A DNA stretch of 64,000 bases from Escherichia coli (GTDB lineage: Bacteria > Pseudomonadota > Gammaproteobacteria > Enterobacterales > Enterobacteriaceae): assembly GCF_002854065.1 (NCBI RefSeq), contig NZ_CP024147.1; one strand, given 5' to 3'. A program made the translations under genes and the position numbers. Below are positions 47,182 through 50,058 of the stretch, piece after piece. How positions within the stretch are numbered: position 1 is the first letter of the stretch; each line of letters starts with the position of its first letter. Below the pieces are notes generated by a model. It ran no database searches, had not been told where the DNA came from, and was given only the letters and a program-made list of their open reading frames with translations.

Positions 47182-48387
47182 TTAACCCGCAAAAATCGGC
47201 AACATCAAATACAGCTTAATTACCAGCGCGTTAACGATATCGATAAAGAACGCACCGACCATCGGCACCACCAAAAACGCCATGTGCGACGGGCCAAAGC
47301 GTTCAGTGATCGCCTGCATGTTGGCGATTGCTGTTGGCGTTGCACCGAGGCCAAAACCGCAGTGACCCGCAGCCAGCACTGCCGCATCGTAGTTTTTGCC
47401 CATCATGCGCCAGGTAACAAAGATGGCATACAACGCCATGAAGATGGTCTGTACCACCAGAATCGCCAACATCGGCAGCGCCAGCGAAGCCAGTTCCCAC
47501 AGTTTCAGCCCCATCAGCGCCATCGCCAGGAACAACGACAGGCTTACGTTACCCAGCACGGATACCGCACGCTCAAAGACGCGGTAAAAGCCCATTATTG
47601 ACAGACCGTTGCTCAGAATCACGCCAACAAACAGTACACAGACGAAGGTCGGCAGTTCAAAAGCTGTGCCAGCCAAAAGTTGCGCAACAATTTTCCCCAC
47701 CGTCAGGCAGATAGCAATCAGCGCGATAGTTTCAATCAGCACCAGCGAGGTGATCATGCGGCCCACATCCGGCTTTTCGAACGCCGTCGGGACTTCCTGG
47801 TCATCCGGAATACCGTTCGGCGTGGTGGAGTGTTTCACCAGATAGCGCGCTACCGGACCGCCAATCAAGCCGCCCAGCACCAAACCGAACGTTGCACAGG
47901 CCATCGCCACTTCCGTCGCATTGGTGAAGCCATAACGTTCAATGAACAATTTACTCCATGCAGCTCCCGTACCGTGACCGCCGGAAAGCGTAATAGAACC
48001 GGCCAACAGCCCCATCAGCGGATCAAGCCCTAACAGGCTAGCCATACCAATGCCAATGGCATTTTGCATCACCAACAGACCAACAACCACAATCAAGAAG
48101 ATGCCAACCACACGCCCACCGGCACGCAAACTGGCAATGTTGGCGTTCAGGCCAATGGTGGCGAAGAATGCCAGCATTAACGGATCGCGCAGGGACATAT
48201 CAAAGTTGACTTCCCAGCCCATGCTTTTTTTCAGTACCAGTAGCGCCAGCGCCACCAACAAACCGCCCGCAACAGGTTCCGGTATGGTGTATTTCTTCAA
48301 AAAGGAGACGGAATGGACCAACTTACGCCCGAGCAGCAACGTCAGCGTTGCGGCAACAAGCGTTGCTAAAGTATCGAGATGAAACAT
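47182..48387 (-). CDS. gltS: Sodium/glutamate symporter
   Basis: ORF track 47182..48387 (401 aa); MFHLDTLATLVAATLTLLLGRKLV. Confidence 0.95.
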   Translation of the reverse strand: MFHLDTLATLVAATLTLLLGRKLVHSVSFLKKYTIPEPVAGGLLVALALLVLKKSMGWEVNFDMSLRDPLMLAFFATIGLNANIASLRAGGRVVGIFLIVVVGLLVMQNAIGIGMASLLGLDPLMGLLAGSITLSGGHGTGAAWSKLFIERYGFTNATEVAMACATFGLVLGGLIGGPVARYLVKHSTTPNGIPDDQEVPTAFEKPDVGRMITSLVLIETIALIAICLTVGKIVAQLLAGTAFELPTFVCVLFVGVILSNGLSIMGFYRVFERAVSVLGNVSLSLFLAMALMGLKLWELASLALPMLAILVVQTIFMALYAIFVTWRMMGKNYDAAVLAAGHCGFGLGATPTAIANMQAITERFGPSHMAFLVVPMVGAFFIDIVNALVIKLYLMLPIFAG

Positions 48388-48598
48388 AGTTACTCCTTTG
48401 TGTCCGCATCACTCTTTCATACTCGTCATACTTCATCGCGCAGTGGCAACTTCATGAACTATGACGGGTATCGAGTTATGCTTTCCTGGGTCAAATTCTC
48501 AGCTGTTAATGAACAAATGGCATGGATTTTAAGCAGAAAAATACCAAAAGTTATATAAAAAAGTTCATTTATCTCATTTAAATATTTAGAAGAGGACG

Positions 48599-48614
48599 TA
48601 GCAAACGTTTGCTT
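48599..48614. promoter_or_regulatory. PurR-box-like palindrome upstream of xanP
   Basis: tAGCAAACGTTTGCtt at 48599..48614 matches the PurR operator core GCAAACGTTTGC; about 55 bp upstream of the xanP start. Confidence 0.5.
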
Positions 48615-48666
48615 TTCTCTTTCGGTCAGCTAAAATGCCCGCTTTGCTACCACGGGATTGTTTTCG

Positions 48667-50058
48667 ATGTCTGTTTCCACCCTCGAGTCAGAAAATGCGC
48701 AACCGGTTGCGCAGACTCAAAACAGCGAACTGATTTACCGTCTTGAAGATCGTCCGCCGCTTCCTCAAACCCTGTTTGCCGCCTGTCAGCATTTGCTGGC
48801 AATGTTCGTTGCGGTGATCACGCCAGCGCTATTAATCTGCCAGGCGCTGGGTTTACCGGCACAAGACACGCAACACATTATTAGTATGTCGCTGTTTGCC
48901 TCCGGTGTGGCATCGATTATTCAAATTAAGGCCTGGGGTCCGGTTGGCTCCGGGCTGTTGTCTATTCAGGGCACCAGCTTCAACTTTGTTGCCCCGCTGA
49001 TTATGGGCGGTACCGCGCTGAAAACCGGTGGTGCTGATGTTCCTACCATGATGGCGGCTTTGTTCGGCACGTTGATGCTGGCAAGTTGCACCGAGATGGT
49101 GATCTCCCGTGTTCTGCATCTGGCGCGCCGCATTATTACGCCGCTGGTTTCTGGCGTTGTGGTGATGATTATCGGCCTGTCGCTAATTCAGGTGGGGCTG
49201 ACCTCAATTGGCGGCGGTTACGCAGCCATGAGCGATAACACCTTCGGCGCACCGAAAAATCTGCTGCTGGCAGGCGTGGTCTTAGCCTTAATTATCCTGC
49301 TTAACCGTCAACGTAACCCTTACTTACGCGTGGCCTCACTGGTGATTGCGATGGCGGCCGGATATGCGCTGGCGTGGTTTATGGGCATGTTGCCAGAAAG
49401 CAACGAACCGATGACGCAAGAACTGATTATGGTGCCAACGCCGCTCTATTACGGTCTTGGCATTGAATGGAGTCTGCTGCTGCCGCTGATGCTAGTCTTT
49501 ATGATCACTTCGCTGGAAACCATTGGCGATATCACGGCGACCTCTGACGTTTCCGAACAGCCAGTGTCCGGTCCGCTGTACATGAAACGCCTGAAAGGCG
49601 GCGTGCTGGCAAACGGCCTGAACTCGTTTGTTTCAGCGGTGTTTAACACCTTCCCGAACTCCTGCTTCGGGCAGAACAACGGAGTGATCCAGTTGACCGG
49701 TGTTGCCAGCCGCTATGTCGGTTTTGTCGTCGCGCTGATGTTGATCGTGCTGGGTCTGTTCCCGGCAGTGAGCGGTTTTGTACAACACATTCCAGAACCG
49801 GTTCTGGGCGGCGCAACGCTTGTAATGTTTGGCACCATCGCCGCCTCCGGTGTGCGTATCGTTTCTCGTGAGCCGCTGAACCGTCGGGCGATTCTGATTA
49901 TCGCCCTGTCGCTGGCGGTTGGTCTGGGCGTGTCTCAGCAGCCGCTGATTTTGCAGTTTGCCCCTGAATGGCTGAAAAACCTGCTCTCCTCCGGGATCGC
50001 CGCGGGCGGTATTACTGCCATCGTGCTGAATCTGATTTTCCCACCAGAAAAACAGTAA
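48667..50058 (+). CDS. xanP: Xanthine permease (NCS2 family)
   Basis: ORF track 48658..50058; start trimmed to [18 protein letters not shown]. Confidence 0.95.

Follow-up and report, generated by a model that had tools for sequence, protein, structure and literature searches.

PurR and the Escherichia coli xanP gene: a known operator at the promoter and a candidate second operator within the coding sequence

Control of xanP by PurR has been described in Escherichia coli K-12 MG1655, where PurR was mapped by ChIP-chip by Cho et al. (2011; NAR 39:6456; PMC3159470). The log2 enrichment of the PurR peak over xanP was 2.08 when adenine was present and 1.36 when it was not, the motif site given for the peak is TGGCAAACGTTTGCTT (Table 1 of PMC3159470), at a position equivalent to that of the element called O1 here, and the gene is counted among those 'directly repressed by PurR'. 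In the same publication xanP went down 20.1-fold upon addition of adenine, its expression was changed 30.8-fold by deletion of purR, and PurR motifs were stated to coincide with -10 and -35 elements. The PurR site at xanP is rated as having strong evidence in the RegulonDB evidence paper (PMC3548332), a comparative study from 2008 had placed yicE, the old name of xanP, within the predicted PurR regulon (PMC2329645), and the PunR paper assigns xanP to the PurR-1 iModulon (PMC8376909). O1 as the PurR operator of xanP is already known, having been published in 2011 and curated in RegulonDB, and repression of xanP by PurR through this site, published and curated since 2011-2013, is not a discovery. 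All of the experimental data on the xanP operator come from K-12, which carries a G at position 2 of the 16-mer where the DNA analyzed here carries an A.

The purR gene itself is reportedly autoregulated through two operators, a description attributed to Rolfes and Zalkin in 1990, and both operators are said, going by the title of that work, to lie downstream of the promoter. An intragenic roadblock operator was reportedly described in purB by He and Zalkin in 1992. There PurR is cited as an effective roadblock inside a coding region, an accepted mechanism and one that resembles what is proposed here for the second element at xanP (O2). In K-12, purR is also similar to xanP in the layout of its boxes. 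Relative to the ATG its strong box is at -60 and its weaker box, GAGCAAACGTTTCCAC, at +28, 88 bp away, and the boxes of xanP are found at -68 and +30 and are 98 bp apart. The two genes differ in that the purR operators are reportedly both downstream of the promoter, whereas O1 of xanP overlaps the inferred -35. Overlap of both purR boxes with the PurR operators from the 1990 work of Rolfes and Zalkin is given in PMC5110547. The operator of purMN, TCGCAAACGTTTGCTT, is a 16-mer that differs from O1 only at position 2 and is likewise followed by a T-rich flank. However, the operon it controls serves purine biosynthesis and not transport for salvage, and no second box is found within 900 bp of its operator.

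The DNA analyzed here is a stretch of 64,000 nucleotides from an E. coli chromosome (the window), in which a first-pass annotation, made from the letters alone, had pointed out a near-consensus PurR operator upstream of xanP. When the window was re-read the 16 nucleotides of O1 were exactly as annotated. The element had been described as containing a 12-bp perfect palindrome; the palindrome is indeed perfect, but its length is 14 bp. Its placement about 55 bp upstream of xanP was right, as 54 nt separate the end of the core from the RefSeq xanP ATG (48667), or 52 nt when counted from the 16-mer. The divergent arrangement of the two genes, with gltS on the minus strand and xanP on the plus strand, is borne out by the RefSeq annotation of an identical locus. 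The intergenic region shared by gltS and xanP is 279 bp long, and O1 is located 211 bp from the gltS start codon. The features discussed here are collected in Table 1.

Table 1. Coordinates of xanP, its neighbor gltS, and the known, candidate and inferred regulatory elements, in window positions
Feature	Position	Strand	Basis or remark
gltS, divergent neighbor	47182-48387	-	annotation of identical locus and K-12
PurR operator O1, 16-mer TAGCAAACGTTTGCTT	48599-48614	.	sequence, matrix rank, K-12 ChIP-chip equivalent
O1 perfect palindrome, 14 bp, AGCAAACGTTTGCT	48600-48613		
O1 core, 12 bp, GCAAACGTTTGC	48601-48612		
Inferred -35 hexamer of xanP promoter, TTGCTT	48609-48614	+	wholly inside right half of O1; phylogenetic footprint
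Inferred -10 hexamer of xanP promoter, TAAAAT	48631-48636	+	conserved alignment block
xanP (formerly yicE), xanthine/proton symporter, 463 aa	48667-50058	+	RefSeq annotation (identical locus, K-12), ORF list
O2 extended conserved palindrome, 18 bp, TGCGCAACCGGTTGCGCA	48696-48713		xanP codons 10-16
Candidate PurR operator O2, perfect palindrome GCGCAACCGGTTGCGC	48697-48712	.	xanP codons 11-16
GCAACCGGTTGC			sequence within O2

By sequence O1 belongs to the PurR operator class, being a 16-bp pseudo-palindrome with G3, A5, A6 and a central C8-G9. It matches the PurR consensus ACGCAAACGTTTGCGT at 13 of 16 positions, the entire 12-bp core included, and it has the invariant G3 and C8 as well as the near-invariant A5/A6 of 38 known half-sites. 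The placement fits the class as well, in the promoter region of a purine transport gene and over the inferred -35. The exact 12-mer of the core occurs once in the window compared to 0.02 expected occurrences, an expectation that rises to 0.5 when one mismatch is allowed. A PurR weight matrix, the use of which had been suggested in the first-pass annotation, was built from 27 published sites (Cho et al. 2011, Table 1) with xanP excluded, and O1 ranked first in the window with 14.7 bits. Because a random 64-kb sequence would hold about 0.9 matches at this score, O1 is suggestive but not decisive from sequence alone. Position, conservation and the published ChIP and expression data settle its identity. 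PurR ChIP and expression in a purR mutant had also been named as checks, and in K-12 both are positive, the latter with the 30.8-fold change of xanP; together with the effect of adenine these data support the earlier proposal that PurR represses xanP (PMC3159470). Whether the site was already curated had been left uncertain, and the strong rating in the RegulonDB evidence paper answers this (PMC3548332). O1 is useful as a positive control, in that an operator that is real and backed by experiment was picked up by reading nothing but the sequence. An inverted-repeat search missed the perfect palindromes of both O1 and O2 and returned two weak AT-rich repeats instead. The second-best PurR matrix match in the window, ACGAGAACGCTGGCGC (14438-14453, 13.0 bits), is probably a chance match, since about 3 matches of at least 12.5 bits are expected by chance and the TTGC arm is absent.

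The xanP loci of 80 species-level Enterobacteriaceae genomes from about 25 genera were aligned with that of the window, giving 81 sequences. Three conserved blocks are present in the alignment: the operator followed by TTTT, the sequence GGTCAGnTAAAAT, and a GGGA motif resembling a Shine-Dalgarno sequence. TTGCTT is found at the putative -35 in 80/81 sequences, and the putative -10 is TAAAAT in 78/81 and TAGAAT in the other 3. In all 81 the -10 starts exactly 18 nt past the O1 core, while its distance to the ATG is not fixed and ranges from 29 to 42 nt. Because O1 and the -10 are always the same distance apart while the leader differs in length, we infer a xanP promoter composed of the -35 TTGCTT, a 16-bp spacer and the -10 TAAAAT, from which a transcription start is also predicted. 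A sigma-70 consensus scan of 48300-48750 called no promoter, a result explained by the -35, in which just 3 of the 6 positions agree with TTGACA.

With hypoxanthine or guanine in ample supply, a PurR dimer with its corepressor would bind O1 and occlude the putative -35, whereby RNA polymerase would be kept off and synthesis of the xanthine importer shut down. Since O1 contains the inferred -35, bound PurR should exclude polymerase, and exclusion in this manner is most likely the mechanism by which xanP is repressed. Such occlusion agrees with the statement of Cho et al. on PurR motifs at -10 and -35 elements (PMC3159470). O2, located roughly 55-70 nt downstream of the predicted transcription start, would probably act as a secondary operator or roadblock. 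We hold with high confidence the joint reading in which O1 is the primary PurR operator of xanP and O2 probably adds to the repression.

Conservation of O1 extends across the family. A PurR box is found at the same place in 80/80 of the other loci, with the core GCAA[A/T/C]CG[T/A]TTGC, and apart from one change at position 15 the boxes differ only at positions 1-2, 7 and 10. These cross-species changes are limited to positions at which the motif tolerates them: variability in the 38 K-12 half-sites is highest at positions 2, 4 and 7, 31 of them have A at position 1, and G3 and C8 do not vary. Within the species, 5245 of 5247 matched E. coli genomes have an identical 40-mer over the stretch from the O1 core through the -10, and the 301-bp gltS-xanP region is present in 5423 of 5426 complete E. 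coli genomes. The xanP operator of K-12 MG1655 shares with that of the window its locus, its position (the 16-mer starts 68 nt before the ATG), the core and the gltS/xanP gene pair. The alignment of K-12 to the window contains a single difference within the 16-mer, G to A at position 2 (48600), as a result of which the perfect palindrome is 14 bp long here and 12 bp in K-12. The same change drops the matrix score from 17.0 to 14.7 bits and leaves the core as it was. An A at position 2 of the xanP box is also found in several Citrobacter, Trabulsiella and Buttiauxella genomes, and accepted PurR sites such as that of purF carry it too (PMC3159470). Binding of PurR to the A allele of the window is expected to be retained, judging from these sequences. 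The left-flank allele of the window, C48597 with A48600 as opposed to T and G in K-12, is found in at most 15 of the 5247 matched E. coli genomes, and a match of at least 99% to the whole 301-bp intergenic query was obtained with just 2 of 5423 genomes. Because of this rare flank allele and the scarcity of close matches over the 301 bp, the window can be said to come from an uncommon E. coli lineage. The closest genome is that of strain 100416, obtained from human stool in the Gambia.

Could O1 instead be a chance palindrome, or a site for CytR, GalR, RbsR or Cra, with the PurR dependence of xanP being indirect? LacI-family operators do resemble each other, GalR ChIP signal has been found at both PurR operators of the purR gene (PMC5110547), and the matrix score of the allele in the window lies within what chance would give in 64 kb. 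However, the exact consensus core would be expected only 0.02 times per window, and it is kept in 80/80 related species at a fixed distance to the -10. The half-site of O1, GCAAAC, is that of the PurR consensus and differs from those of GalR (GTGNAANC), Cra (TGAAAC) and RbsR (GCGAAAC). With the PurR ChIP-chip peak and the purR-dependent expression change of xanP also standing against it (PMC3159470), we find this reading scarcely credible. A role of O1 in regulating gltS, in addition to xanP or in its place, is very unlikely too. The operator is symmetric and located in the intergenic region shared by both genes, and it was by way of this region that gltS entered the predicted PurR regulon in 2008 (PMC2329645). 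Yet O1 is distant from the gltS start codon (211 bp) and its position is fixed relative to the -10 of xanP, no connection between glutamate uptake and purine control is evident, and Cho et al. assign their peak to xanP only, with no mention of gltS (PMC3159470). Between these two publications, no evidence for regulation of gltS by PurR was found beyond the 2008 prediction. Neither the sequence, its conservation nor the published data yielded substantial evidence against O1 as a PurR operator.

A second PurR-like palindrome, O2, is found inside xanP. The pattern GCAANCGNTTGC has 2 occurrences in the 64-kb window, both at xanP, where 0.19 would be expected. O2 starts 30 nt after the A of the xanP ATG and is 98 bp from O1, centre to centre. 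It contains the central CG and the GCAA/TTGC arms of the motif, and with 12.6 bits it is the third-ranked matrix match in the window. The element is conserved in 80/81 sequences, is located at +30 in 79/80 related loci, and is the best or second-best matrix match in 79/80 of them. Its forms among the related loci are GCGCAACCGGTTGCGC (40 loci), GCGCAACCGATTGCGC (32) and minor variants (7), with one locus from which it is absent. Only one variant is common, an A in place of G at position 10; it substitutes Ile for Val and has a higher PurR score, 15.5 bits compared to 12.6. The distance between O1 and O2 varies from 97 to 110 bp among genera. This speaks against looping that depends on helical phase and is in keeping with PurR dimers that bind the two sites independently. 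CytR, AscG and GntR were considered as readers of O2 and rejected, as the half-site CGCAA is closer to PurR than to the half-sites of these regulators, and the common G to A variant shifts O2 toward the PurR-typical CGATTGC.

The only loss of O2 among the 80 loci is in a Buttiauxella metagenome-assembled genome (L080, 1024-1053), which reads GCACAACCTGCTGCGT at this site. The same locus keeps a strong upstream box, ATGCAAACGTTTGCTT, with 18.6 bits, and a related locus, L082, retains a weakened O2. As such, O2 appears to be dispensable in at least one lineage.

In the codon alignment the third positions of codons 10-15 have an entropy of 0.08-0.09 bit compared to a gene mean of 0.99, and the five-codon windows at O2 occupy ranks 1-2 of 459 for lowest third-position entropy in xanP. 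The residues flanking O2 are poorly conserved. When columns conserved for the same amino acids were drawn from elsewhere in xanP, the entropy of O2 was reached in 0 of 100,000 draws (P<1e-5). The Gln codon of O2 is the minor CAA in 81/81 sequences, while at other conserved Gln positions CAG is used 1013 times and CAA 283 times. Because of this codon constraint, together with a Val to Ile change that raises the PurR score, selection at O2 is best read from the alignment as acting on the nucleotides and not on the protein.

The element in codons 10-16 might alternatively be an mRNA hairpin that acts on translation or mRNA stability, and not a PurR operator. Such a hairpin would have a 7-bp stem (UGCGCAA/UUGCGCA) and a 4-nt loop, with a folding energy of -10.3 kcal/mol (z = -2.2 to -3.6 compared to shuffles), and positions 7 and 10, where all common variants of the element occur, belong to the loop. 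The conserved stretch corresponds to exactly the 18 nt of the hairpin and reaches one base beyond the PurR 16-mer on each side, to T48696 and A48713, neither of which the PurR motif needs. T48696 is a third codon position and is T in 98% of the sequences although the encoded residue can be N, D, S or A, and A48713 is conserved in 91%; in the 38 PurR half-sites there is no preference just outside the 16-mer, with A in 15, T in 11, C in 7 and G in 5 at position 0. Counting against a PurR site, too, are a G at position 1 and a C at position 7 in both halves of O2, as each of these is uncommon and occurs in only 4/38 known half-sites.

The hairpin accounts less well for other features of the element. 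The CG at the center of the loop is almost invariant, a constraint that a loop does not need and PurR does, and the third position of Pro13 is G in 80/81 sequences, above any of 24 other conserved Pro codons. Changes in the stem in three loci (L064, L081 and L082) are uncompensated, and in the first of these the hairpin collapses to -2.3 kcal/mol, yet the 12-bp PurR core is intact. The stem never covaries, so that positive evidence for an RNA structure is missing, the 5' mRNA as a wider region shows no unusual degree of structure (z = 0.08), and there is no Rfam match to the hairpin; a scan of 48380-48900 against Rfam gave only a sub-threshold snoRNA match (E = 0.39), which was dismissed. We consider the hairpin unlikely as the sole explanation. 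That O2 is a PurR operator, as its sequence and conservation suggest, we would put at about an even chance, and the remaining share of probability falls to operator and hairpin together or to something else. The one terminator-like match in 48300-48750, on the minus strand at 48713-48696, coincides with the O2 palindrome; it was rejected as a terminator, since its T-run corresponds to the non-conserved codons 8-10.

The published ChIP-chip data on K-12 do not separate the two elements, as the xanP peak is 1.4 kb wide and O1 and O2 are 98 bp apart (PMC3159470). Nowhere in the main text of the same publication is there wording that refers to a second or intragenic site. In the papers searched or read, a second PurR site at xanP was not found mentioned, and a literature search for PurR ChIP-exo data likewise gave no relevant result. 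O2 is possibly the only new item at xanP. Control of xanP by two PurR operators, O1 over the -35 and O2 written into codons 11-16 as a roadblock or secondary operator, is a proposition for which we judge belief and doubt to be evenly balanced. If it is correct, O2 has kept synonymous positions from changing throughout the Enterobacteriaceae in an N-terminus that is variable elsewhere, and the repression of xanP, one of the strongest in the regulon, would be explained in part by the presence of two operators. Confirmation of O2 would refine, to a modest degree, what is known of a well-studied regulon, and it would give a clean case of a regulatory site constraining codon choice. To a specialist it would be of interest but no surprise, since purR and purB already provide examples of PurR operators within genes.

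O2 of xanP can be compared to second boxes at the other PurR targets of K-12. With a symmetric matrix O2 scores 14.5 and the second operator of purR 11.6. At 15 of 19 other K-12 targets the second-best match within 900 bp reaches 7.6 bits at most, and no extra box above 7.6 bits is found at the biosynthetic pur operons. Of the 19 targets, only purR, ghxP (yjcD; 15.0 bits) and adeP (yieG; 11.7 bits) have a strong second box nearby. Multiple operators would, if the two-operator reading of xanP holds, be a hallmark of purine-base transporter genes, with ghxP and adeP as further examples. The second box of ghxP is at +142 from the first and that of adeP at +32. However, ghxP is different in that its extra boxes are all upstream of the coding region, and only xanP has a box inside codons. 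In the sequence upstream of ghxP the boxes are at locus positions 458, 557 and 600, the extra ones being AGCTAAACGTTTGCTT (15.0 bits) and GGATAATCGTTTGCTT (9.1 bits). At adeP the boxes are at locus positions 460 and 492, with ACGAAAACGTTAAACT (11.7 bits) as the extra one.
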